Source of the DNA: Campylobacterota bacterium
GTDB taxonomy: Bacteria; Campylobacterota; Campylobacteria; Campylobacterales; JAJVLF01
DNA length: 64,000 nucleotides
Assembly: GCA_029255845.1 (NCBI GenBank)
Contig: JAJVLF010000013.1
Coordinates: forward strand, 1,469-65,468
Reading direction: 5' to 3'
Shown here: in pieces, positions 2,756 to 63,370 of the stretch
Layout of the letters: each line of letters begins with the position of its first letter
How positions within the stretch are numbered: position 1 is the stretch's first letter
Notes under the pieces: model-generated
The model's input: only the letters and a program-made list of their open reading frames with translations
Told to the model about the DNA's origin: nothing
Databases searched by the model: none
Made by a program: the position numbers and the translations under genes

Positions 2756-3207
2756 TAATATTAAAATTGTATAATTTCATTATGCAAAATATACAACTAG
2801 GAAAATCATTGGGGCATTTATTTCATTTTATTAATTTGAATATGAGAAAGAAGCTAGATAAGGACATAAGGGAGCTTGGTCTTACATCTTCACATCAATT
2901 TGGTGTGCTATTATTGCTAAGTAAAAGCAATCTATCGCAAAAAGAAATTTCAGATTCTACCTTAGCAGATGAGCCTTCTACTACGAGAATGCTAGAAAGA
3001 ATGATAAAAAAAGAGCTTATTTCTAAGAAAAAATCAGATAAAGATAAAAGAAAACAAATAGTTTTTATAACGAATAAAGGCAAAGAGCTTTTGAAAAAAG
3101 CAATGCCTTTGGCTAATGAGGGCAATAAAAAAATTGAGAATATATTAAGTAGTGATGAATTAGAAAATCTTTTTACTATTTTAAATAAAATAAAAGATGG
3201 TATTTAA
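2740..3207 (+). CDS. MarR-family transcriptional regulator
   Basis: Winged-HTH region LSQKEISDSTLADEPSTTRMLERMIKKELISKKKSDKDKRKQIVFITNKG. The track start is TTG; ATG at 2782 (MQNIQLG) is the more likely start. The stop TAA lies in the TTAA abutting MITE 3208-3368. Confidence 0.85.
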   Translation: MLKTSIILKLYNFIMQNIQLGKSLGHLFHFINLNMRKKLDKDIRELGLTSSHQFGVLLLLSKSNLSQKEISDSTLADEPSTTRMLERMIKKELISKKKSDKDKRKQIVFITNKGKELLKKAMPLANEGNKKIENILSSDELENLFTILNKIKDGI

Positions 3208-3368
3208 GGGAACCTCTATTAATTCAAAATAAATAGCTAATATTATATTTTAGCCTTATAGCAATTTTTATAAAATAGATGTAGCTACGGCTACACCGTA
3301 TTTTATAAAAATCACTCTAAAACTAAAATCTAACATTATCTAAATTATTTGAATTAATAGAGGTTCTC
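3208..3368 (-). mobile_element. Foldback MITE family A, complete 161-bp copy
   Basis: GGGAACCTCTATTAATTCAAA...TTTGAATTAATAGAGGTTCTC. Arms pair over about 70 nt around a TGTAGC-TACG-GCTACA centre. Flanked by TTAA (3204-3207) and TTAA (3369-3372). Confidence 0.9.
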
Positions 3369-3409
3369 TTAAGATAGCGAATTTTATAAAAATTTGATAG
3401 AATAAAAAA

Positions 3410-8692: not shown

Positions 8693-9191
8693 CACTTCTG
8701 CACAGATTGTATAGCTTTAGTTAAAAAAATAATTCCCGCTCTAATAATAAGTAAAAATTTTATAACCTCTAAAATACCATATATAAAATGATAATAACTT
8801 TCAGGCAAAGGCTCATTTGATATAACCATATCAGCTCTCTCCATAAGAATAGGTAAAAGCCAGATATTTTGTATGATAAAAATGCTTATTGGTAATAGAT
8901 ATAAAATCCATATTTTTCTATTAGGTTTTATAAAAAACAATGAAGTAATAATTAAGGAAGATATTATCCATTCCATAATGCTTAAGGCTTTGAATATTAT
9001 CTTGCCTATTCCTAGCCCTAATGCTGTCGTTATATTAGGAGCTTGAAATTTTAATGGGGCTTCCATAAAAGAAATGCTAAAAATTGAGCCTACCCATATA
9101 AAGAGACCAATGCACTTCTAATTTGCATTGGTCTCATAAAGGTTAAACTTATGATTAATACTTGTAAATATACTTGTTTTTTATCTGACAT
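8692..9191 (-). pseudogene. DUF4149-like small membrane protein gene split by a 33-bp mini-MITE
   Basis: Removing 9103-9135 plus one ATAAA copy (38 bp) joins MSDKKQVYLQVLIISLTF (ATG 9189-9191) in frame to IWVGSIFSISFMEAPLKF... With the insert the 5' frame stops after about 33 codons. The track ORF 8692-9066 is the 3' part. Confidence 0.65.
9103..9135. mobile_element. MITE family C, 33-bp minimal derivative
   Basis: GAGACCAATGCACTTCTAATTTGCATTGGTCTC (12-bp stem). Flanked by direct ATAAA (9098-9102 and 9136-9140). Confidence 0.85.
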
Positions 9192-9192
9192 T

Positions 9193-9564
9193 TTATCTCC
9201 TAATTAACACACTTTGTATTTTATTGTTTTCACATTTATTTATACTAAGTCTTGCTACTGATTTCTCTATTGCTTCTAGTTCGTGAAGAATATTTTCTTT
9301 AAGATATATAATATCTCCACTTTTTAATATAAATACTTCTTTTTTGACTGTAAATTTTATTTCTCCTTGTATGCACATAAGAGTGATGGGGTATTTGCTT
9401 TTATGCTCTTTCATAATTTGCTTTTTATTAAAAGCTATGCGAACTTCTTTAGTAAGCTCATCATCCATCATTACATTAATGGACACATTTTTATCTGAAA
9501 ATTGGACATCTTTTAAAAATGATATTACTTGCATATTTATTCTTTTTTTTAATTTAGAGACCAA
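9193..9564 (-). CDS. Cupin-domain protein
   Basis: Cupin-like core (GEIKFTV...GDIIYLKENILHELEA). The track TTG start lies inside MITE 9557-9589; ATG at 9532-9534 (MQVISFLKD) is the likely start. Confidence 0.7.
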   Translation of the reverse strand: MVSKLKKRINMQVISFLKDVQFSDKNVSINVMMDDELTKEVRIAFNKKQIMKEHKSKYPITLMCIQGEIKFTVKKEVFILKSGDIIYLKENILHELEAIEKSVARLSINKCENNKIQSVLIRR

Positions 9565-9589
9565 TGCACTTCTAATTTACATTGGTCTC
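9557..9589. mobile_element. MITE family C, 33-bp minimal derivative
   Basis: GAGACCAATGCACTTCTAATTTACATTGGTCTC. Flanked by direct ATTTA (9552-9556 and 9590-9594). 1 nt different from 9103-9135. Confidence 0.85.
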
Positions 9590-16238: not shown

Positions 16239-16266
16239 AAACACCCTCACTATTTATAAAACTTAA

Positions 16267-16427
16267 GGGAACCTCTATTAATTCAAATAATTTAGATAAT
16301 GTTAGATTTTCGTCTTATAGTGATTTTTATAAAATGCGGTATAGCCGTAGCTATATCCATTTTATAAAAATTGCTATAAGGCTAAAATATAATATTATCT
16401 ATTTATTTTGAATTAATAGAGGTTCCC
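16267..16427 (+). mobile_element. Foldback MITE family A, complete 161-bp copy
   Basis: GGGAACCTCTATTAATTCAAATAATTTAG...TTTGAATTAATAGAGGTTCCC. Flanked by TTAA (16263-16266) and TTAA (16428-16431). Lies 3' of glyQ. Confidence 0.9.
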
Positions 16428-16534
16428 TTAAGTATCAGGTAATAAAAAATTAACTTTCCCTCAATTTTCAGAAAACATCTTAAATCTTAACTTAACAAGA
16501 TAGGTGAGACTAAACTCTAATATCTTATTCGGAC

Positions 16535-17424: not shown

Positions 17425-17487
17425 ATCAAAACCTCCTTTAGAAATATTAAACGAATTATAATATTTTTTTACTTAAACAAAGTTTAA

Positions 17488-17648
17488 GGGAACCTCTAAA
17501 AATACAAAATAAATAGATAATATCATATTTTCACTTTATGATAATTTAAAAATATTAGATGTAGCTACGGCTACACCGTAATATTTTAAAATCACCATAA
17601 AGCAAAAATCTGACACTATCTAAATTATTTGTATTTTTAGAGGTTCCC
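17488..17648 (-). mobile_element. Foldback MITE family B (sub-family of A), complete 161-bp copy
   Basis: GGGAACCTCTAAAAATACAAA...TTTGTATTTTTAGAGGTTCCC. Flanked by TTAA (17484-17487 and 17649-17652). Followed by a GGGAACGG stub. Confidence 0.9.
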
Positions 17649-17743
17649 TTAAGGGAACGGTGTATCTTAAATGTCTAGTCCTTGAATAAAAAAGTATTTT
17701 AAGAAATCTTTTTCGTAAAAAAATTAAAATATGGGGATATTAA

Positions 17744-18496
17744 ATGAAAACAATATTATTTGTTATAGTTGGGATGTTATTAGTAGGATGTGGTAGCTCT
17801 GGAAACAATAATGGTTCTGGAAATACTGGTGGTGAAGCTTCAATAAAAAAGGACAAAGAGCAAGCAACAGACAATACTAATAAAACCTCTTATGAGACAG
17901 TTCAATATAAAGCTACGATAAAAACTATATGGACAGCAGAAAACTTTGCTACAAATTTTCCAAGTGGGAGACATTTTTCTCAAGTCATAGGGATGACACA
18001 TAATGAAAATATCAAATTATTTAATGTCGGCTCTAAAGCAACTAATGGTATTAAAGAAATGGCAGAAACAGGAAAAACTACCATAACAACAAATGAAATT
18101 AAAAACTATGTTTCTAATAAAAATGCAGGACTTGTCATAAAAGGCTCTTCACTTTCTTCAAGTGTCGATACCGTAAGTTTTAATTTTAATATTAGCTCTA
18201 ATCATAGCTTAATATCTATAGTAAGTATGATAGCTCCTAGCCCAGATTGGTTTATAGGGATAAATTCTTTAAATTTGATGGAAGATGGGGAATGGATAAA
18301 AGAAAAAATAATAGATTTAAAAGTCTATGATTCTGGAACTGATAACGGAAATATATTTACTTCATCAAATGAAGCAACAACCCCACAAGAAAACATTACT
18401 AGATTAAGCACTTCTTCTAGTGATACTGATTTTCAAGATGGAAAACATAGAAGCTCTAATAACTTTAGGGAACCTCTATTAATTCAAATAATTTAG
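17744..18496 (+). CDS. Spondin_N-domain lipoprotein with MITE-derived C-terminus
   Basis: Lipobox LLVGCGSS. Spondin_N-like pattern (IWTAENFATNFPSGRHFSQVIGMTHN ... SPDWFIGI). The last 9 codons (REPLLIQII) and the stop are encoded by MITE 18468-18628. Confidence 0.7.
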   Translation: MKTILFVIVGMLLVGCGSSGNNNGSGNTGGEASIKKDKEQATDNTNKTSYETVQYKATIKTIWTAENFATNFPSGRHFSQVIGMTHNENIKLFNVGSKATNGIKEMAETGKTTITTNEIKNYVSNKNAGLVIKGSSLSSSVDTVSFNFNISSNHSLISIVSMIAPSPDWFIGINSLNLMEDGEWIKEKIIDLKVYDSGTDNGNIFTSSNEATTPQENITRLSTSSSDTDFQDGKHRSSNNFREPLLIQII

Positions 18497-18628
18497 ATAA
18501 TGTTAGATTTTAGTTTTAGAGTGATTTTTAGAAAATACGGTGTAGCCGTAGCTACATCTATTTTATAAAAATTGCTATAAGGCTAAAATATAATATTAGC
18601 TATTTATTTTGAATTAATAGAGGTTCCC
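18468..18628 (+). mobile_element. Foldback MITE family A, complete 161-bp copy
   Basis: Flanked by direct TTTA (18464-18467 and 18629-18632). Inserted 3 codons before the original stop of the Spondin_N gene. Confidence 0.9.
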
Positions 18629-18732
18629 TTTAACCACATATAAAAACATCTATGTTAGTGGCTCAATTTTTAATAAATAAATTTATCATTAGACTTCTTG
18701 CAAAACCCATCAAATTGGATATATGAGTTATA

Positions 18733-18893
18733 GGGAACCTCTATTAATGCAAAATAAATAGCTAATATTATATTTTAGCCTTATAGCAATTTTTATAAAA
18801 TAGATGTAGCTACGGCTACACCGTATTTTATAAAAATCACTCTAAGACTAAAATCTAACATTATCTAAATTATTTGAATTAATAGAGGTTCCC
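18733..18893 (-). mobile_element. Foldback MITE family A, complete 161-bp copy
   Basis: Inverted relative to 18468-18628 and 104 bp away. The flanks TATA and TTTA are not identical. Confidence 0.85.
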
Positions 18894-19347
18894 TTTAATG
18901 ATAATTTATGCTTGGTGTCTATAAGAGTTTTTCTACTGTTAAATGGGAAAACAGTATGTTTGAGTAAGCTTTTTAGCTTTCCCTCTAAGAAGTCCCTCTC
19001 TAAAGTTAATTCACCTACTTTTTTAGCCATAGAGTCTTTATCTCTTTTTAGAACTTCTATTGTTTCTTTATATTCTCGGACTACTACACTTTTATCAAAT
19101 GCTAGGCTCATATTGTCTAAGAATTGTTTTTTCCAATCTCTTAGGCTTTTTGGTAATATTTCATACTTACTAGCTATCTCATTTAATGTTTGTTCACATT
19201 CTAAAACTTCTAATACTAGTTTAGATTTGAAATCTGCTGTGTACTTTTTTCTTTTTGTGCTCATTGTTTTTGTCTCCATTTTTTATGTTTTATTTTATCA
19301 TTTTGGAATAAGGAAATTCTTATTTTTGGTTACAATTATGAGGGACA
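18894..19347 (-). mobile_element. IS3-family insertion sequence remnant (left end + orfA only)
   Basis: OrfA HTH region MSTKRKKYTADFKSKLVLEVLECEQTLNEIASKYEILPKSLRDWKKQF...ERDFLEGKL. The minus-strand terminus begins TGTCCCTCATAATTG at 19347. Homology stops at MITE 18893. No orfB. Confidence 0.75.
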
Positions 19348-19352
19348 TTATA

Positions 19353-19432
19353 GGCTATACCGCATTTTATAAAAATCACTATAAGACGAAAATCTAACAT
19401 TATCTAAATTATTTGGATTAATAGAGGTTCCC
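19353..19432 (-). mobile_element. Half copy of MITE family A (from the central loop to the right terminus)
   Basis: GGCTATACCGCATTTTATAAAAATCACT...TTTGGATTAATAGAGGTTCCC. Breaks in the central hairpin, 5 bp from the IS3 terminus. Confidence 0.8.
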
Positions 19433-19447
19433 ATAAAAAGGATTAAT

Positions 19448-19951
19448 ATGTCATGTGATTTATGCAATAGCGAAGAGGAATTATCAGAATATGTGGTAGC
19501 CCCAAAAGAAGATACAATTACAATCTGCAAGCATTGTGCAAATAATATAAAAAATCCAAAAGAGAATGAAAATCATTGGAAATGCTTAAATGACAGTATG
19601 TGGAGCGATTCTCCCGCTGTGCAAGTAGTAGTATTTAGATTACTCTCTCACTTGGGTGAGCAAGATAAATTAGATATGATGTATTTAGAAGATGAAACAA
19701 AAGTATGGGCTAAAGAGGATTTAAGGACATCAAATAAAGAGCCTGTGAGAGATTCTAATGGCACAATTTTATCAGAGGGTGATTCTGTAAGTATCATTAA
19801 AGATTTACCTGTTAAAGGAGCAGGATTTACTGCCAAACAAGGAACCACAGTAAAAAATATCCGTATGGTGCCAGATGATAATACACATATTCAAGGTCGT
19901 GTAAATGGGACTATTATATTTATTGTTTCTGCATTTTTGAAAAAATTATAA
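19448..19951 (+). CDS. phnA: PhnA/YjdM-family zinc-ribbon protein
   Basis: N-terminal CDLC...CKHC zinc ribbon. C-terminal PhnA domain (DSNGTILSEGDSVSIIKDLPVKGAGFTAKQGTTVKNIRMV). Confidence 0.85.
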   Translation: MSCDLCNSEEELSEYVVAPKEDTITICKHCANNIKNPKENENHWKCLNDSMWSDSPAVQVVVFRLLSHLGEQDKLDMMYLEDETKVWAKEDLRTSNKEPVRDSNGTILSEGDSVSIIKDLPVKGAGFTAKQGTTVKNIRMVPDDNTHIQGRVNGTIIFIVSAFLKKL

Positions 19952-19963
19952 AACTTACTAAAA

Positions 19964-20021
19964 GAGACCAATGCAAATTAGAATCACCCTATCTTATGCA
20001 CTTCTAATTTGCATTGGTCTC
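19964..20021 (-). mobile_element. MITE family C, 58-bp internal-deletion derivative
   Basis: Both termini plus TCACCCTATCTTATGCAC from the right interior. Direct TAAAA flanks (19959-19963 and 20022-20026). The SNF2 stop codon (20021-20023) spans its edge. Confidence 0.85.
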
Positions 20022-23000
20022 TAAAACAACAATTTCATCAATTCTTTCCCCGTAATTTTTTCACTAGAGTCCCCTTTATATATCCCCTCTTGTAAAGATA
20101 GTTTTTTCTTTTGTAATTCTAATATCTTCTCTTCTATACTATTTTCTACAATAAGCTTATAAACAAATACTGCCTTATTTTGTCCTATTCTATGAGCTCT
20201 ATCTGTAGCTTGATTTTCTACAGCAGGGTTCCACCATGGGTCGTAGTGGATGACTGTGTCGGCTTGGGTTAGGTTTAGTCCCACTCCTCCTGCTTTTAGG
20301 CTTATTAAGAATATTTGGACATCTCCATTGGTGAATTTATTAATTACCTCTTCTCTTTTTCTTGTTGAACCTGTTAGCTTTGTGTAGCTGATATTTTTAT
20401 TTATTAATTCTTTTTCTATTATTGATAGCATTGAAGTGAATTGTGAAAATACTAATATTTTTTTATCTTCTTGTAATAGCTCATCTATTAAATCTAAGAA
20501 TAATGCTAATTTAGCAGATTCATTGACTTTTTTTGCTTCAGATATTTTTACTAATTTAGGATCACAGCATACTTGTCTTAGCTTTAATAAGGCATCTAAT
20601 ATGGTTATATGAGATTTTGCTAAGCCTTTAGTTTTGACTATGTCTCTAACTTTCTTTTCCATAGTAATTCTTATGCTCTCATATAATTTTGCTTGTTTTT
20701 TATCAAATTGAGTGTATTTTATTATCTCTGATTTTGCTGGTAGCTCTAATAAGACATCTTCTTTTTTTCTTCTAATCATAAATGGCTTTATTTTAGCATT
20801 TAGCATTTCTTGTTTTTTAATATTGCCTTCTTTTTCTATTGGGTTTTGATATAACTCCTTAAATCCTTTTAAGCTTTTTAGAAATCCTGGCATTAAAAAG
20901 CTAAATATAGACCAAAGCTCTCCTAGGTGATTTTCGATAGGTGTGCCACTAAGAGCTAATTTATGTTCACTTTTAATAGTCTTAATAGATTGGGACATTT
21001 TAGTTTGTGGGTTTTTAATTTTCTGAGCTTCATCTAAAATAATATAACTAAATTTATGCTCATTAAATCTATCTATATCTCGCACTACCAAAGAATAAGA
21101 AGTAATAATTAAATCATTTTTATTAATTTTATCAAACTCTTTAAACCGTTCTAATCCCCCATATAAAGATAGAACTTTGAGTTTAGGAGTAAATTTAGCT
21201 ATTTCATTTTTCCAATTAGCCACCAAAGAAGTAGGCACTACAATTAAGCTAGGTTTTTTTAATAGCTTTTGCTCTTTTAATCGCAATAAATGTGCTAAAA
21301 CTTGGACTGTCTTACCTAGTCCCATATCATCTGCTAAAATACCAGAAAATCTAAACTCATATAAAAAATTAAGCCAATTAATTCCTTCTTTTTGATAATC
21401 TCTTAAAGTTAGTTGCAAATTCTTTGGAGGCTCTATTTTCTCAATTTTTTCAAAATCATTCAGTTTTTTAGAAAGCTCTAAAATCTCCTTAGAGCCTTTC
21501 CATACAATACTATCATCGATATTTCCTAAAAGATGAGACTCAAAAGAAGATACTCTTATTTCCCCACTATCGTTTTTATCATCATAAAGCTCAAAGATAA
21601 TATTTAAAATAGGCCTTAATGAGCTTGATTTAATCCTAGCAAAGTGATTAGGTTTAACCTCGACATTTACATACTCTTCTAATTCATCAAAATCATCATA
21701 CTCTTGTAAAAGATTACTAATTAATGGAGCTAAAGACACACTTTGACCTGCGAAATCTATATTAAAAGACAAAGAAAACCAATCATTACTATCTTCACTT
21801 TCAACAACCACAAGAGCATCATCTTCAAATGTTAAATTAAAACTATCATCAAAAATTACATCAAAACCATCTAGCTTTAATTTGTCCAAGCCATCTTCTA
21901 AAAACTTATGCCAAAAATCTAATTGTTTTTGTTTATTAGAAATATTGCCTAAATGAAAATATAAATATGTAGCTTCTTTAGCGGAACTAAAGCCTAAATC
22001 TTCTAGTTTATTTTTAGCTTTATTTTCAAATTCTAAATCTCTAATAATTTCAATTTGTTGATTATCTTCAAAAATAATAGTTTTATCATTTTGAGGGTAG
22101 TAATTACTAAGCACATTTTTATATACAAAATCTAATTGAATTATATTTCTATTCATTTTATTTGATAACATTAAAGACGGTATAGGCTTTTGTTTGATAC
22201 TTGAAACTTCAAATCCTAAAGGAGGAGATATATCAATAGCATCTAATTTTCCTAAAAGAGCTTGATACATTTTAGACATTTGATAAGTCTCTATTTCAGG
22301 TGTATTTGTGAGTTTGCGGAGCATGTCTTCATTAATATTACTATTTATTTTATGGACTTCCTTTTTCTTTGGATTGATGATAAATAATGGTTTTGTAAGC
22401 ACGATATGAGATGTTTTATCAATATCCATTTGTATTTGATATTTGTTTACTGTAGTAGATTTCCATGATAATTTAATATTTTGTAATTCTTGTGAATATG
22501 TAAGGGGGCTTTGATTATTTTTATAAAAAGCACGATTTGTTTCAAGTATAGCCATTAAGATATTAGCACCGAGCTTACCTTCTAATTTAATTTCATTAGC
22601 ATAACGAGCATAAACATATAGAGGGTTGCTGTAAGCAACTTTAAGCATATCAAGTATTTCTAAATCTTCTTCGTTTAATATATCACTATAAGAATTATGA
22701 TGTAATAATCTATCCATAGATACTTTCTTGCCGTGAGAGATTTCTCCATTTTGAAGAAAAGAAACTCTATAGCATTTGACATCACTATATGCATGGCTAT
22801 CTTTATTGTATAAGCGATAAATCATCATAGAATTACTTGATACATTTTTCACATTATCATTTTCAAATTCATTAATCCAAGAATCAAATGAGTTTTCATC
22901 ATATACAACCATAGCATTCTTAGAACTATTCGCATAAAGCAAACAAGAAGCTACAACATGCTTGCAATTATGCTTTATAGGACAGCTACAAACCCCAATA

Positions 23001-23212
23001 ATAATTACTCTATCATTAAATTGCACAATAGAAATATCTTGCTCATACATAAAGCTACCTTGCACATTACTTTTTATTTTCACACTAATATCCGAACCTT
23101 CTTCTATATCGAATATATCGATATTAGCACTATCATTATAATACCTAAGTCCTCTTGCGTAATAGTTTTTATTTTTAATTGCATTTTTAATCTGTGTATT
23201 ATTTAGGGTCAT
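20021..23212 (-). CDS. SWIM zinc-finger + SNF2-family helicase/ATPase
   Basis: 1063 aa. SWIM CSCPIKHNCKHV near the N-terminus. SNF2 motifs DDMGLGKT, DEAQKIKN and QATDRAHRIGQ. Confidence 0.9.
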   Translation of the reverse strand: MTLNNTQIKNAIKNKNYYARGLRYYNDSANIDIFDIEEGSDISVKIKSNVQGSFMYEQDISIVQFNDRVIIIGVCSCPIKHNCKHVVASCLLYANSSKNAMVVYDENSFDSWINEFENDNVKNVSSNSMMIYRLYNKDSHAYSDVKCYRVSFLQNGEISHGKKVSMDRLLHHNSYSDILNEEDLEILDMLKVAYSNPLYVYARYANEIKLEGKLGANILMAILETNRAFYKNNQSPLTYSQELQNIKLSWKSTTVNKYQIQMDIDKTSHIVLTKPLFIINPKKKEVHKINSNINEDMLRKLTNTPEIETYQMSKMYQALLGKLDAIDISPPLGFEVSSIKQKPIPSLMLSNKMNRNIIQLDFVYKNVLSNYYPQNDKTIIFEDNQQIEIIRDLEFENKAKNKLEDLGFSSAKEATYLYFHLGNISNKQKQLDFWHKFLEDGLDKLKLDGFDVIFDDSFNLTFEDDALVVVESEDSNDWFSLSFNIDFAGQSVSLAPLISNLLQEYDDFDELEEYVNVEVKPNHFARIKSSSLRPILNIIFELYDDKNDSGEIRVSSFESHLLGNIDDSIVWKGSKEILELSKKLNDFEKIEKIEPPKNLQLTLRDYQKEGINWLNFLYEFRFSGILADDMGLGKTVQVLAHLLRLKEQKLLKKPSLIVVPTSLVANWKNEIAKFTPKLKVLSLYGGLERFKEFDKINKNDLIITSYSLVVRDIDRFNEHKFSYIILDEAQKIKNPQTKMSQSIKTIKSEHKLALSGTPIENHLGELWSIFSFLMPGFLKSLKGFKELYQNPIEKEGNIKKQEMLNAKIKPFMIRRKKEDVLLELPAKSEIIKYTQFDKKQAKLYESIRITMEKKVRDIVKTKGLAKSHITILDALLKLRQVCCDPKLVKISEAKKVNESAKLALFLDLIDELLQEDKKILVFSQFTSMLSIIEKELINKNISYTKLTGSTRKREEVINKFTNGDVQIFLISLKAGGVGLNLTQADTVIHYDPWWNPAVENQATDRAHRIGQNKAVFVYKLIVENSIEEKILELQKKKLSLQEGIYKGDSSEKITGKELMKLLF

Positions 23213-23382
23213 TTTTTTCTTTCATTAATTTAGCTATTTCAATGCTTCTTTGCTCTAATCCTTGCTCCATCCCATTGCCTTCCCATCTTCTTTAGTTTTT
23301 CTCAAAGCTAATTTCTCAATAGAAATAAACTCAACTCTTTTATGTTGTTGATATATTTGTATATCTGATTTTAGCCCTACTA

Positions 23383-23544
23383 GAGACCAATGCAAATTAG
23401 AACCACCTAATCTAGGGAGCTATAAGACATCATAAAGCAATTTTTTTGTTAAAAACATAGCTTTTGCTATGATTTGAACAAAAAAATCACTTTCTAATAT
23501 CTTCTATCACCCTATCTTAGGCACTTCTAATTTGCATTGGTCTC
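23383..23544 (-). mobile_element. MITE family C, full-length 162-bp copy
   Basis: GAGACCAATGCAAATTAGAA...TTCTAATTTGCATTGGTCTC. Direct TACTA flanks (23378-23382 and 23545-23549). 170 bp upstream of the SNF2 start. Confidence 0.9.
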
Positions 23545-23575
23545 TACTAAAATTCTTGAATCAAACTTTGACATA

Positions 23576-23764: not shown

Positions 23765-23840
23765 AAATTTAGTTTTAGAGTTATATAATATCACTTTTAA
23801 TTCAATCCTAATTAAATTATTTGTATTATTAGAGGCTCCC
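23765..23840. repeat. Degenerate/rearranged remnant of MITE family A/B
   Basis: ...CTAATTAAATTATTTGTATTATTAGAGGCTCCC followed by TTAAG. Explains the N-terminal part of track ORF 23576-23905. Confidence 0.45.
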
Positions 23841-24057
23841 TTAAGAAAAAGAAAGTAAAATACCCACATTAGTAAAATTATCAAATCGGCTCTCATTAAA
23901 TACATAATTTAAGGGATTGGCTTTGGTGATTTAATAATAGATTTATTATTAATTAGAAATTTGTAGAATTATTTATTTTTTAGATGAATATAGTCATTAT
24001 TTATATAATATGATGGTTATTACAGTAGAGGTGTGCAAATAAAATACATCTCATCTT

Positions 24058-25908: not shown

Positions 25909-26018
25909 TAAAACTTTAATGTTCCTTTAAGCCTAGATTAATTTAATTGCTATACCATTACATCGGAATAAAAATTTTTAATTATTCCGAGATTAAAAAA
26001 AAGAAAAGGTTTTATTGT

Positions 26019-26471
26019 ATGAAGAAGATTTTATTTTCGTTAAGTTTGATGGTTGCTACTGCAACTGCTGTTTTAGGTGCTGACTGGAGTTTTAATGGTA
26101 TGTTTAAAGACATGAAAGATACTGTTACTGATGTAAGTGATGATATGAGAGATAGCACTAAGTCTATTTCTAAAGATTCAACTGAGCATTCTAAAAGTGC
26201 TGAAAGAACAACTTCAAATGTTTCTAGAGATTTAAAAGATAGCGAAATAGCTACTTCAAAAGATGCTAGATTAACTGGAACTAATATGAGTGATAATGCT
26301 AGAATTTCACTAATTCAGTTAAGTAAAGATGCTAGAGTTGCATTAGAAAAAACTGTTAAAGATGCTTTAGAAGCTTCAAAAACAGCTTCTGGTGATGCAA
26401 AAGATACATTTATCAAAATAGCTCAAGAAGCTCAAGATGCGATAAATGATATTGATGATAAAGTAAAATAA
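26019..26471 (+). CDS. Small secreted D/K/S-rich protein, paralog 1
   Basis: Signal peptide MKKILFSLSLMVATATAVLGADW. Collinear with 27111-27566 over the whole length. The track start 25947 is probably too far upstream. Confidence 0.7.
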   Translation: MKKILFSLSLMVATATAVLGADWSFNGMFKDMKDTVTDVSDDMRDSTKSISKDSTEHSKSAERTTSNVSRDLKDSEIATSKDARLTGTNMSDNARISLIQLSKDARVALEKTVKDALEASKTASGDAKDTFIKIAQEAQDAINDIDDKVK

Positions 26472-26521: not shown

Positions 26522-26652
26522 TGTCGATATACGATGATGCATTCAATTTCTAATCTCGAATAATCCACAAAAATTAACAATAAATAAAATCATTGTCATT
26601 ATAATGACAATGACTTTATCGTAAACTCTCTACTTTTATCAAATACACTAAA

Positions 26653-26981
26653 GGGAACCTCTAAAAATACAAAATAAATAGATAATATCATATTTTCACT
26701 TTATGAGACCAATGCAAATTAGAACCACCTAATCTAGGTAGCTACAAGACATCATAAAGCAATTATTTTGTTAAAAACATAGCTTTTGCTATGATTTGAA
26801 CAAAATAATCACTTCCTAATGCCTTCTATCGACCTATCTTAGGCACTTCTAATTTGCATTGGTCTCTTTATGATAATTTAAAAATATTAGGTGTAGATAC
26901 GGCTACACCGTAATATTTTAAAATCACCATAAAGCAAAAATCTGACACTATCTAAATTATTTGTATTTTTTAGAGGTTCCC
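26653..26981 (-). mobile_element. MITE family B copy carrying a nested family C MITE
   Basis: Direct TAAA flanks (26649-26652 and 26982-26985). Collinear with 17488-17648 except for the 162-bp insert plus a 5-bp duplication. Confidence 0.9.
26705..26866 (-). mobile_element. MITE family C, full-length copy nested in family B
   Basis: Direct TTTAT flanks (26700-26704 and 26867-26871). The uninterrupted target CACTTTATGATAATTT is present in copy 17488-17648. Confidence 0.9.
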
Positions 26982-27110: not shown

Positions 27111-27566
27111 ATGAAAAATATTTTATTGTCGTTACTTTTAATGGTTGCGAGTGCAACTTCTGTATTTGGTGCTGATTGGAGCATGAATAATATGTTTAAA
27201 GATATGAAAGAGGCTGTAACTGATGTAAGTGATGATATGAGAGATAGTGTTAAAACTATGTCAAATACTTCGGTAGAGCATTCTAGAAGTGGTGAAAGAA
27301 CAACTACTAATGTTTCTAGAGATTTCAAAGATGCTGAAATATCTACTTCTAAAGATGCTAGATTAACTGGAACTAATATGAGTGATAATGCAAGAGATTC
27401 ATTAGTTCAATTAAGTAAAGATGCTAGAGCTGCATTAGAAAAAACAGTTAAAGAAGCTTTAGAAGCTTCAAAAACTGCTACTGGTGATACGAGAGATGCA
27501 TTTATAGATATTGCTAGAAATGCTCGTGAAGCTATAGATGATATTGATGACAAGAAGAAAAAATAA
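27111..27566 (+). CDS. Small secreted D/K/S-rich protein, paralog 2
   Basis: Signal peptide MKNILLSLLLMVASATSVFGADW. Shares long identical stretches with paralog 1 (SKDARLTGTNMSDNAR, LEKTVK.ALEASKTA). Confidence 0.75.
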   Translation: MKNILLSLLLMVASATSVFGADWSMNNMFKDMKEAVTDVSDDMRDSVKTMSNTSVEHSRSGERTTTNVSRDFKDAEISTSKDARLTGTNMSDNARDSLVQLSKDARAALEKTVKEALEASKTATGDTRDAFIDIARNAREAIDDIDDKKKK

Positions 27567-29314: not shown

Positions 29315-29330
29315 AGAAAATATTACATAG

Positions 29331-29354
29331 AAGTTTCTAATTTGCAGTGGTCTC
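29331..29354. repeat. Solo right terminus of MITE family C
   Basis: AAGTTTCTAATTTGCAGTGGTCTC versus consensus GCACTTCTAATTTGCATTGGTCTC. A left-terminus-like CCCAATGCAATATT follows at about 29370. Confidence 0.5.
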
Positions 29355-29395
29355 ATATTTTATAATACTCCCAATGCAATATTCTTATAAGCCCA

Positions 29396-39615: not shown

Positions 39616-39652
39616 GGGAACATCTATTAATTTTGAATTAATAGATGTTCCC
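39616..39652. mobile_element. MITE family A, 37-bp minimal derivative (termini only)
   Basis: GGGAACATCTATTAATT-TTG-AATTAATAGATGTTCCC. Both arms carry the same C-to-A / G-to-T change relative to full copies. Confidence 0.7.
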
Positions 39653-39667
39653 TTCAATTTCTAAAAA

Positions 39668-48813: not shown

Positions 48814-48904
48814 ATAGTATTTTTAAAATACACTATTTTTTCTTATACATAGAATAAATAACATCCTTATGCTTATTTTCCACCACAAAACGATTTATTG
48901 TCCC

Positions 48905-49470
48905 AACACGCTAGTTAAAACTATGCACTTTTAGTGCAAGGCTTTCAGCTTCTACAAACATCCAAATGATACAATAAAACCATGAGACATGGAAATCACA
49001 CAATAAGCCAACTTCAAGCCCATATAGTATGGGTAACTAAATACAGATACAAAGTATTAAAGGGAAACATACAGCAAAGATGTAGAGAACTATTAATCCA
49101 AATATATGACTCAGAAGATATAAGAATACTTAAAGGAGTAGTAAGCAGAGATCACATTCATATGCACATAGAATACCCACCAAGTAAATCATTAAGCGAC
49201 ATAGTCAAAAAACTAAAAGGAAGAACTTCAAGAAAGCTACAGATGGAATTCAAAGAACTTTCAAAACAATATTGGGGAAAACATTTCTGGGCAATAGGTT
49301 ATGGAGTATGGAGCACAGGAAATATAACAGAAGATACAGTAGATGAATATTTAGAACACCATCGAAGTCCATCAAACAAAGACACAGGAACAATGATTTT
49401 GGAATAAAAATCATTGCGGACTTTCAGTCCGTATCTTATGAACCTATGGACTTTCAGTCCATAGTGGTTG
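48905..49470 (+). mobile_element. IS200-type (IS200/IS605 family) element; boundaries approximate
   Basis: tnpA flanked by subterminal hairpins: TGCACTTTTAGTGCA (48924-48938), CGGACTTTCAGTCCG (49417-49431) and TATGGACTTTCAGTCCATA (49445-49463). No tnpB. Confidence 0.75.
48982..49407 (+). CDS. tnpA: IS200/IS605-family Y1 (HUH) transposase TnpA
   Basis: 141 aa. HUH motif HIHMHIEY. Motifs IVWVTKYRYKVL and FWAIGYGVWSTG. Confidence 0.9.
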   Translation: MRHGNHTISQLQAHIVWVTKYRYKVLKGNIQQRCRELLIQIYDSEDIRILKGVVSRDHIHMHIEYPPSKSLSDIVKKLKGRTSRKLQMEFKELSKQYWGKHFWAIGYGVWSTGNITEDTVDEYLEHHRSPSNKDTGTMILE

Positions 49471-49644
49471 AGTACTCTTACTCTCTCGTGGTTTATATCC
49501 ATATATTATATATACTTTTTTTAGATATATTAATATATGAAAAAATAGAATATAAAATACCATTAGTTTAAAATTTACTTAAAAATTATAATAGTCCTTT
49601 AACCCCTTTATGGTATCATATATTCAAAAAACAAAAGGATTATT

Positions 49645-60372: not shown

Positions 60373-60399
60373 AAATTTTAGAACAACAAGGATATTTCA

Positions 60400-60613
60400 A
60401 TGATTAAAGATAAAGCTTATTATTACTAATAAAACACTTATATACGAACCAGCTAATCTATCTAAAGCTAAAAAAATAAATATTACCATACCAACAGATA
60501 AATTAATAAATCTTGATATTATGGCAAAACAGCTTAATATGAATAGGTCAAAATTACTTACATCTTTAACTGATAAATTATTAAATGGGGATATACAGAT
60601 AAAGTCATCATAG
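60400..60613 (+). pseudogene. Possible ribbon-helix-helix (CopG/antitoxin-like) gene remnant
   Basis: Frame 60404-60610 encodes ...KKINITIPTDKLINLDIMAKQLNMNRSKLLTSLTDKLL (RHH pattern). The only RBS-preceded ATG (60400) is 1 nt out of frame. Confidence 0.3.
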
Positions 60614-60710
60614 CCATATATAAGGGTTTTTAGCACAATATATTAAATTTTGGGAGGTGATGAAAATATGATGTTATCTTATTGTTATTTATTTTATAGT
60701 TAATTAACTT

Positions 60711-60872
60711 GAGACCAATGCAAATTAGAACCACCTAATCTAGGGAGATACAAGACATCATAAAGCAATTATTTTGTTAAAAACATAGCTTTTGCTATGA
60801 TTTGAACAAAATAATCACTTTCTAATGCCTTCTATCACCCTATCTTATGCACTTCTAATTTGCATTGGTCTC
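60711..60872 (-). mobile_element. MITE family C, full-length 162-bp copy
   Basis: Direct AACTT flanks (60706-60710 and 60873-60877). Central CATAGC-TTTT-GCTATG hairpin. Confidence 0.9.
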
Positions 60873-61078
60873 AACTTTTGATATTCTTTAAATATTTAGA
60901 AAAAAGTATTTTCATTACCTGAATATATGTTCGTAAAACCAAGATTTTTATTCGTATAGCATTTGTATGCACAAATACATATCATCATTTTTTTATGCAA
61001 GATTGCTTAAATCTTGCTAGAAAACGAAGCAAAAAACCACTCTTTCACTTCCTTGACCCCTTAAGGGCAACCTTAATT

Positions 61079-61463: not shown

Positions 61464-61745
61464 TTGAATAAAATAATAAAGTGGAATGAAGAAAAAAATC
61501 AACTTTTAAAACTGCAAAGGGGTGTAAGCTTTGATGATGTTCTTAATAAAATTGCAAATAATGAAATATTAGGAAGAAAAATACATCATAATAATGAAAA
61601 TTATTCTAATCAAGAAATTTTCATTTTTGAAATTAATGATTATATTTATTATGTTCCTTTTGTTGAAAATGAAAATGAAATATTTTTAAAAACAATCATA
61701 CCAAGTAGAAAATTAACAAAAGAGCATAAAACAAATGAAAAATAA
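61464..61745 (+). CDS. brnT: BrnT-family (DUF497) type II toxin
   Basis: IKWNEEKNQLLKLQRGVSFDDV matches the W(D/N)E.K...N..KHGVSF.. signature. 93 aa. TTG start. Confidence 0.75.
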   Translation: MNKIIKWNEEKNQLLKLQRGVSFDDVLNKIANNEILGRKIHHNNENYSNQEIFIFEINDYIYYVPFVENENEIFLKTIIPSRKLTKEHKTNEK

Positions 61746-62022
61746 AACAATACTTGACAATGAAGAATTAAAATTATTAGAAGCGATAGAATCAAATGAT
61801 TTTATAGACTCTCCATTAAAAGAGCAAGAAATGATATATTATAAAAATCATGCTAAATATACAAAATCTTTACAAGAAAAAAGGCAAACTACTATTAGGT
61901 TTGCTATTAGTGATTTAGCTATTATTAAAAGTAAGTCGAAAGAGTTAGGGATAGGGTATCAAAATTTAATTCAGGTTTTAGTGCATGATTATGCTCTTGG
62001 GAAGATTAAACTTAATATATGA
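61735..62022 (+). CDS. brnA: BrnA-family antitoxin (CopG/RHH-like)
   Basis: TTIRFAISDLAIIKSKSKELGIGYQNLIQVLVHDYALG matches the BrnA C-terminal pattern. Overlaps brnT by 11 nt. Confidence 0.75.
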   Translation: MKNKTILDNEELKLLEAIESNDFIDSPLKEQEMIYYKNHAKYTKSLQEKRQTTIRFAISDLAIIKSKSKELGIGYQNLIQVLVHDYALGKIKLNI

Positions 62023-62134: not shown

Positions 62135-63370
62135 TTATATTAAACTATCAATTATTTCATCATCAACTATTAAGTCCCATCTTTCTGACAAAAACAGTAA
62201 TATTTTCTTACTACGATTATCTATAATTTCAGGTGTCCATTCTCCATTTTGACTCACTTCTATTTCGCTATAGCTACCTTTGAAAAATATTTCTTTTTTA
62301 TCATTAAAACATTTATTTTTTAAGCTTGAATTTTTAGAAGTTGACAATAAAACTAAATTACCTAATGCGTGTAATTTTCTACTTCTTTTTTTCCCTATTA
62401 ATTGAGAATAGTTATCTTCCCAACATTTATCTTTTGGGGTTTGTGGGTAGATATGCTCTATCGTTTCTTTATTTATTTCTTCCCACTGTAATTTAATTTC
62501 TCCTTTTGATTTTTCTTGTAAAAATAGTTCATATTCATATAATAAATATTTCAAACCCTTCCAACTATACCAGCCTTCATATTTTTCAAAATGCTCACGA
62601 ATATCATTTTTAAAATTATCTGGTCTTACCCATCTATATACATTATCATCAGAATAAATTTCTTGTTTCATATTATCAATTAATTTATCAATATTTTTAT
62701 TTTCATGAAATTCATTAGCATATTTATAAAATCTACTATCTCCAGCTATTAGACTAATATGCTCATACATTACTTTATGAGAATCTTCTTTAGCTACAAA
62801 TATAAAAGAATGACCACCTTGTAATGCTTCTCTAGCAAATGGCTCATGAGCATATAAATCATCACCTAATAGTATAATGTCTAAATTTAGAAGTTTGTTA
62901 TGCTTTAACCATCTTTTTGAAGCATTAATCTCACAATCTTGTTTCTTAGTTCCATCACTATTTTCTATAAGTTCAGGCATTAAAGAAATAACTTTATTTA
63001 TATTTGGTGATACTATGACTGGAGTAATTGCTTGATGTGAGTATGTTGTTTGTTCATCTTTATATTCTTTGGTTAAACATTTTGAACATTTAATTGTTTT
63101 TGATGAGTGATATCCAGTTCCATCTAATGCAACTAGGTATTTATTCATATGTTTATAAGAGTTTAGTATTTTTGCTTCTTTTAGATAATTTAAACATTCA
63201 TTATATAGAGGTTTTAGACAAATTGGCTCTATAGAGTCAAGTATATCTCTAATATGGTTATCACTTGGTATTTTATCTATACCAAATAAACTATTTGCAT
63301 TATTTCTTCCTTCTTTTTCTTCCATCTTTCTTTGAAACTCTAAAAAACTACTTGATTGCATATGAAACAT
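62135..63370 (-). pseudogene. In-frame chimera: N-terminal half of a DDE transposase fused to the C-terminal DUF1524 (GmrSD-type HNH-like) domain
   Basis: aa 1-205 look like a transposase (DGTGYHSSKTIKCSKC, LLGDDLYAHEPF, FIFVAKEDSHK). aa ~250-411 look like DUF1524 (TIEHIYPQTP...LHALGNLVLLSTSKNSSLKNKCF). The frame stays open upstream to 63499 without a canonical start. Confidence 0.55.

Follow-up and report, generated by a model that had tools for sequence, protein, structure and literature searches.

A palindromic 162-bp repeat family in a deep-sea Campylobacterota genome is very probably a non-autonomous transposon (MITE)

The repeat family C is very probably a non-autonomous transposon bounded by terminal inverted repeats (TIRs), that is, a MITE. 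It was identified in a 64,000-nucleotide stretch of DNA, hereafter the window, which is a gene-dense piece of bacterial chromosome with 28% G+C. Six complete copies and one solo end are dispersed over these 64 kb, and one more copy is present in another lineage. A first-pass annotation had already read the family as a MITE, and this reading is upheld by the TIRs, target duplications with a fixed length of 5 bp, the empty and filled versions of one insertion site, the dispersal of the copies, and closed reading frames. Family C is an unreported MITE family of an ordinary, well-known kind.

The 20-nucleotide terminus GAGACCAATGCAAATTAGAA occurs 11 times in the 64-kb window, compared with 0.04 occurrences expected by chance. 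Up to three mismatches were permitted in this search, and every match had one at most. The family-C features of the window are:

23383–23544, plus strand: full-length copy of 162 bp with perfect 20-bp TIRs; target duplication TACTA at 23378–23382 and 23545–23549; placed between a 109-aa ORF and the start of a Snf2-family helicase gene
26705–26866, plus strand: full-length copy of 162 bp; target duplication TTTAT; nested in a family-A MITE copy
60711–60872, plus strand: full-length copy of 162 bp; target duplication AACTT; intergenic
19964–20021, plus strand: 58-bp internal-deletion derivative; target duplication TAAAA; exactly between the convergent stop codons of yjdM-like and Snf2-family genes
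9103–9135, plus strand: 33-bp derivative; target duplication ATAAA; downstream of a cupin gene
9557–9589, plus strand: second 33-bp derivative; target duplication ATTTA; 23 bp upstream of the cupin ATG
29335–29354, unstranded: solo terminus with one mismatch (GAGACCACTGCA...; GAGACCACTGCAAATTAGAA on the minus strand), between PqiA-like and PLP-enzyme genes

On re-reading, the six complete copies have the same coordinates and the same perfect 5-mers as in the first-pass annotation. The plus orientation that it had assigned to the three full-length copies and the 58-bp form is shared by all six complete copies in an nhmmer profile search, which detected no further family-C copies in the window. 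The solo terminus, previously placed at 29331–29354, is present and is slightly shorter in our delimitation. Within window positions 29320–29359, the sequence ATATT is located 10 nucleotides upstream of the solo end and again after it. This pair could mark a 30-bp remnant with its duplication, or could be due to chance in A+T-rich DNA.

Perfect 5-bp direct repeats flank all six complete copies in the window, and seven of seven when the copy from a cold-seep relative (contig L084) is included. At the base composition of the window, a matching 5-mer arises by chance with p = 0.0023 per copy. The duplicated bases are A or T at 33 of 35 positions (94%), compared with a background of 72–75% (p = 0.001–0.004).

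The copy at 26705 is inserted into a copy of another MITE family, family A, and the corresponding empty site is preserved in a family-A paralogue:

26651–26977, plus strand: family-A MITE copy with GGGAACCTCT... termini, target of the 26705 insertion
17486–17650, plus strand: uninterrupted family-A paralogue, with a single TTTAT where the 26705 copy inserted

The interrupted family-A copy reads ...CACTTTAT and TTTATGATAA... on the two sides of the element, whereas the paralogue at 17486 reads ...CACTTTATGATAA... at this place. In a wider reading, ...TTTTCACTTTAT and TTTATGATAATTT... are separated by the 162 bp in the interrupted copy, whereas 17486–17650 has the uninterrupted ...TTTTCACTTTATGATAATTT... 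sequence. The empty and filled sites occur in one genome and therefore show that TTTAT was duplicated on insertion. The 26705 insertion is younger than its host family-A copy, because it is nested inside it. The first-pass annotation had proposed recent mobilisation of DDE type. Transposition is confirmed by the empty and filled sites, but its recency is not, since the window copies differ from one another by 3.7–5.6%. The DDE assignment is derived from the TIRs and the fixed length of the duplication, and we infer from these sequence features that a DDE-type enzyme probably acts on the elements in trans.

The second lineage that carries family C is a relative of the window's host. The RNase J of the window is only about 60–64% identical to those of Arcobacteraceae, Sulfurimonas, and other Campylobacterota; close relatives of the host are known from a metagenome of a hydrothermal vent and from cold-seep water of the South China Sea (PMC9357000). 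Contig L084 of the cold-seep relative contains a full 162-bp copy at 900–1061, which is 96.9% identical to the 23383 copy. It is flanked by ATTAT on both sides, so that the duplicated 5-mers for which the first-pass annotation had looked to other copies are found there. The RNase J gene of L084 has only 82% nucleotide identity to that of the window, and the neighbours of the L084 copy, a DUF4395 gene and an AsnC-type regulator gene, have no counterpart in the window. Because the element is far more conserved than the host genes and occupies a different locus, it has probably either spread horizontally or been kept under strong constraint. The non-orthologous locus rules out a palindrome confined to orthologous sites, which the first-pass annotation had named as the contrary case, and the nested 26705 copy contradicts it as well. 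No family-C copy was found in about 28 kb read from relatives at 84–86% identity (L082, L088, and L089), which are not syntenic with the window at the insertion sites. The contigs of the relatives at 91–93% identity (L085 and L086) end at or before the repeats.

The family-C copies are not an assembly artefact, since independent assemblies reproduce their junctions. From the same sample, a Logan contig covering window positions 19993–23410 ends 28 bp inside both flanking copies. An identical 58-bp form occupies the identical TAAAA site in a contig from a second run (L090). The same-species NCBI MAG GCA_030618665.1 is 99.86% identical to the window over 4.3 kb and has both 33-bp copies. Both are also present in a Logan contig from a third project, and another Logan contig extends to both of them, ending inside the 9103 copy.

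Structural differences between strains were observed around several repeats. A contig from a further run within the project (L090, locus 1–570) matches window positions 19433–20012 at 100% identity, and upstream of yjdM it contains the 3′ end of a UvrD-like helicase gene, which replaces the window's cluster of family-A copies and an IS3 remnant. The break is positioned exactly at a family-A terminus (window 19433) and is explained either by a rearrangement between strains or by incorrect joining of the MAG contig at the repeat. A strain sequenced in a different project, 99.25% identical, has the 33-bp copy downstream of the cupin gene (window 9072–9135) in the segment L093:880–956, and the flanks of this copy do not match; one is TTTAT, and the other, ATTTAAGTTAAATT..., is absent from the window. 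These flanks suggest recombination between two copies, or a different allele. From position 60981 onward, the MAG GCA_030618665.1 (L096:1–279) does not differ from the window; upstream of this point, a family-A end and about 195 bp of other sequence replace the region with the 60711 copy (window 60373–60980). The intergenic region around the 60711 family-C copy is thus structurally polymorphic.

The family-C element is a palindrome over nearly its whole length. The arms are 79–84 nucleotides long, 80–81% complementary, and 4 nucleotides apart. They meet at the centre CATAGC-TTTT-GCTATG, and Watson-Crick pairs are formed at 63 of the 81 mirror positions, in agreement with the near-complete palindrome described by the first-pass annotation. 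Folded as single-stranded DNA, the element reaches −42.3 kcal/mol (z = −12). Every copy has the termini GAGACC...GGTCTC at both ends. The 20-bp TIRs are perfect in every full copy, and imperfect similarity between the inverted repeats extends to about 35 bp. The element has no coding capacity, with stops throughout all six frames, and its copies therefore cannot be retrieved through peptides. The outermost six bases, GGTCTC (for example, window positions 23539–23544), correspond to the recognition site of the type IIS enzymes BsaI/Eco31I. The window contains four other GGTCTC sites outside the elements, and no functional link is apparent. Excision by a BsaI/Eco31I-type enzyme was rejected, because the geometry of its cuts would fail to restore matching flanks, and because GGTCTC is unexceptional in the rest of the window.

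The short derivatives differ in the extent of their internal deletions. The 58-bp form is composed of nucleotides 1–20 (left 20 nt) and 125–162 (right 38 nt) of the full-length element, and its junction is located beside the imperfect direct repeat CCACCTAATCT / TCACCCTATCT. The 33-bp forms are composed of left nucleotides 1–12 (12 nt) and right nucleotides 142–162 (21 nt), with the junction at the direct repeat ATGCA, which occupies nucleotides 8–12 and, in the T138 variant, nucleotides 137–141. Judged by their sequences, the 58-bp and 33-bp junctions are products that would be expected of slippage across a long palindrome. The 33-bp copy at 9103–9135 forms a hairpin with a 12-bp stem and a 9-nucleotide loop. 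The copy at 9557–9589 has the identical deletion junction and differs from it by one substitution. As the two copies share one junction and have separate duplications, either the 33-bp form itself transposed, or the deletion occurred twice. The arrangement of a small gene between two 33-bp hairpins was also considered as a pair of integron attC sites, which was rejected because each hairpin has its own 5-bp duplication.

The arms of the palindrome appear to change in concert. The comparison of full-length copies comprises only four sequences, three from the window and one from L084. They differ at 15 variable positions, six of which form three mirror pairs with the pairing kept:

positions 8/155: A-T to C-G, in the L084 copy
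positions 35/128: G-C to T-A, in copy 26705
positions 61/102: T-A to A-T, in copies 26705 and 60711

Slid-partner controls returned no such pairs. When the 15 changes were randomly re-placed in 200,000 trials, at least three mirror pairs never arose, and at least two arose in 0.03% of the trials. Four other paired positions have uncompensated changes. The mirrored substitutions indicate that something keeps both arms symmetrical, and a plain DDE model does not predict them. The symmetry could be due to selection on a DNA or RNA hairpin, to arm-to-arm correction, or, at position 8, to co-variation with a variant transposase. Coming from four sequences, the upkeep of symmetry is a lead, not a settled result. 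The solo end of the window is the same C8 terminus variant as the L084 copy; therefore, at least two subfamilies are present in both lineages.

A hairpin with mirrored substitutions could also be maintained as a regulatory palindrome of the host, such as a terminator, an RNA-stability hairpin, or an sRNA, that is conserved or was spread by recombination and not transposed. The placement of the copies, all of which are intergenic, is consistent with such a role, as is the position of the 58-bp form exactly between convergent stop codons. Furthermore, one strand of the element's centre contains a promoter-like TTGTTA-16-TGnTATGAT, and the opposite strand has a small terminator-like hairpin with a T-run. 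However, promoter-like matches in the element are no commoner than in shuffled sequence. An Rfam scan of the element returned no family at threshold, and the sub-threshold matches are generic long-hairpin models of miRNA precursors, far under their gathering scores. The orientation of the copies relative to neighbouring genes is inconsistent, the locus in the second genome is non-orthologous, and one copy is inserted, with a duplication, inside another MITE. The empty and filled sites refute a non-mobile version of this explanation, which we consider extremely improbable. As a MITE, family C may still have copies with a secondary, exapted regulatory role.

The Pfam sweep for a transposase partner covered window ORFs of at least 90 aa, except two long ORFs (NCBIfam only or outside the scan), and the NCBIfam scan covered ten ORFs adjoining the copies. 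No transposase gene with family-C ends was found among the ORFs covered by this sweep. Terminus searches of the window (20-mer with up to three mismatches and 12-mer with up to two) returned the known copies and two isolated 12-mer near-matches, which is the chance level. Two transposase-related genes are present:

18848–19279 (remnant 18848–19347), minus strand: IS3-type orfA remnant (HTH_Tnp_1) with no orfB, identified by Pfam
48982–49407: intact gene of an IS200-type Y1 transposase of 141 aa, Pfam E = 3e-39

Neither gene is bounded by, or near, a family-C terminus. The first-pass annotation had seen no autonomous partner in the window; this holds with respect to matching ends, but the two unrelated transposase-related genes had been missed. 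The IS3 remnant has an end-like sequence TGTCCCTCATAATTG (TGTCCC...) about 70 bp upstream of its ATG, which is unrelated to the family-C termini. The remnant is located within a half copy of family A, and a full family-A copy truncates it. Elements of the IS3 family (IS2 group) have termini 5′-TG...CA-3′ and a 3–5-bp duplication. A MITE derived from them was rejected, since the length of the duplication fits, but the termini are GAGACC...GGTCTC and not TG...CA.

The complete Y1 gene at 48982–49407 raises the alternative that a HUH/Y1 transposase moves family C as a hairpin of single-stranded DNA, similarly to REPIN/RAYT systems or IS200/IS605 derivatives. REP/REPIN elements, which are associated with RAYT (Y1) transposases, are short hairpin-forming repeats with evolutionarily maintained stems, and do not have an architecture of TIRs and target duplications. 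Y1 elements of the IS200/IS605 type insert beside a fixed short target without duplication and have no TIRs. Family C resembles REP/REPIN elements in being a short hairpin repeat with maintained stems in a window that contains a Y1 gene. Its strong single-stranded DNA hairpin with mirrored substitutions would suit a Y1 enzyme, and so would the shared plus orientation of the six complete copies, although the two-sided p of the latter is only 0.03, too weak to interpret. In contrast to REPINs, seven of seven family-C copies have 5-bp duplications, which differ between copies, and the empty site shows that the duplication is a true one. The repeats have no association with the Y1 gene. The latter belongs to an apparently intact IS200-type element (about 48900–49480) with its own subterminal hairpins, for example, GCGGACTTTCAGTCCGT and TATGGACTTTCAGTCCATA, which are unrelated to families A and C, and there are no GAGACC termini nearby. 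We regard movement by the Y1 transposase as very unlikely. An IS200/IS605-derived or REPIN element was rejected on the combination of perfect TIRs with variable duplicated 5-bp flanks.

A search of 185,579 species genomes returned no exact match to the 20-mer terminus, and neither the exact 20-mer nor a degenerate 18-mer terminus was found in IMG/VR. A plasmid collection contained no family-C match. The only terminus match in JGI metagenomes, L081, comprises 21 matching nucleotides on a GC-richer, unrelated contig and looks like a chance match. A full-text literature search for the terminus sequences returned unrelated primers only, and literature searches on MITEs of vent Campylobacterota gave nothing relevant.

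The canonical ends of families that generate 5-bp duplications are GGGG in Tn3, and TG...CA in IS3/IS2, Tn7, Mu, and Tn402. The family-C terminus GAGACC... matches none of them. Inverted repeats of the Tn3 family are about 38 bp long and begin with GGGG. Family C could be a derivative of the Tn3 family, moved by a Tn3-type transposase of about 1000 aa that is perhaps plasmid-borne; a plasmid-borne enzyme would also account for the two host lineages. The imperfect inverted-repeat similarity to about 35 nucleotides is near the Tn3-family length, but is not specific to inverted repeats, because the whole element is palindromic. The ends begin with GAGACC instead of the conserved GGGG, no Tn3-type transposase or resolvase was found among the window ORFs swept, and the plasmid collection gave no match. 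Tn3-derived MITEs (TIMEs), described in Pseudomonas spp., generate 5-bp, A+T-rich direct repeats (PMC4133298), which the 5-bp, 94% A+T duplications of family C match. Family C is like TIMEs also in being non-coding and bounded by TIRs. It has no sequence similarity to TIMEs, and its host is a low-GC deep-sea member of Campylobacterota and not a Pseudomonas species. Two TIME copies can bracket a gene, and here two 33-bp copies bracket the cupin gene; however, these have their own separate duplications and thus did not move as a composite. Taken together, a Tn3-type origin appears quite unlikely to us.

The classical palindromic MITEs of bacteria are Correia/NEMIS in Neisseria, ERIC/IRU in enterobacteria, and RUP in pneumococcus, all of which duplicate TA. 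They are about 100–160 bp long, intergenic, palindromic over nearly their whole length, and accompanied by shorter variants with internal deletions; their hairpins can affect transcripts. Family C shares their size, near-whole palindrome, intergenic placement, and internal-deletion variants. It differs from them in its variable 5-bp duplication, in its host phylum, and in having no sequence similarity to them. A TA-duplicating MITE (Correia, ERIC, RUP, or IS630-type) was rejected, since the flanks of family C are 5-mers of varied sequence.

Family A, from the same genome, is more abundant than family C. It is about 165 bp long and palindromic over its whole length, with the termini GGGAACCTCT...AGAGGTTCCC. 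Its copies in the window are:

1–96: partial copy
3206–3370: copy
16265–16429: copy
17486–17650: copy
18466–18630: copy
18731–18895: copy
19339–19434: half copy
26651–26977: copy
23810–23849: remnant
39622–39661: remnant

Five of the copies are clustered at 16.2–19.4 kb, and fragments are present in relatives (L082:3955–3999 and L084:5347–5393). Families A and C are similar in size, palindromic structure, intergenic placement, and copy multiplicity, but they have unrelated termini. The flanks of family A are interpreted as a duplication of 4 bp (TTAA in four cases, TAAA, and TTTA), in contrast to the 5-bp duplication of family C. The nested pair of A and C elements is flanked by paralogous small ORFs at 25947–26471 and 27111–27566, which are 82% identical over a 300-nucleotide stretch and have a weak YtxH-like match; the arrangement is like a tandem duplication with repeats between. 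Possible defence-related genes adjoin family-C copies (window 20021–23212, 61464–62022, and 62135–63370). They include a helicase of the Snf2 family that resembles ZorD and DrmD models below threshold, a BrnT/BrnA-like toxin-antitoxin pair, and an endonuclease of the GmrSD type.

For family C as a MITE, we propose the following mechanism. A transposase encoded elsewhere would bind the approximately 20-bp TIRs, which continue imperfectly to about 35 bp. The 162-bp unit would then enter A+T-rich DNA, mostly between genes, where the target strands are cut with a stagger of 5 bp, and repair of the gaps would generate the 5-bp duplications. The 58-bp and 33-bp forms may have arisen by slippage that bridged the long palindrome at short direct repeats; they retain both termini and may still be mobilisable. 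The symmetry of the arms may be kept through selection on a DNA or RNA hairpin, or through arm-to-arm correction. The target preference for A+T is a probable feature of this system, and the mobility of the short forms is a possible one.

The results document a previously undescribed MITE family in an uncultured lineage of Campylobacterota from vents and seeps, the genome of which is densely populated by such elements. Assemblies break, and strains differ in structure, at or near MITE copies, in some cases exactly at the boundaries. This bears on the quality of MAGs, the contigs of which break or may be mis-joined at the family repeats. Since copies are located immediately beside start and stop codons, they are also relevant to gene calling. 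Family C leaves the current understanding of transposition unchanged. Its mildly interesting aspects are the arm symmetry kept by paired changes, the tiny derivatives with their own duplications, and the near-identity across diverged deep-sea lineages. It is conceivable, though unlikely, that the hairpin is the functional unit, that it is moved by, or evolves together with, an undescribed transposase lineage of deep-sea Campylobacterota that recognises a structured or strictly symmetrical end, that the 33-bp form is mobile, and that the family has recently spread horizontally. If so, the 33-bp form would be among the smallest transposable units known, and the near-identity between lineages with approximately 82%-identical genes would be a sign of this recent spread. 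The mirrored substitutions and the 33-bp derivatives make family C a compact system for studying the minimal needs of a transposase and the symmetry of palindromes.
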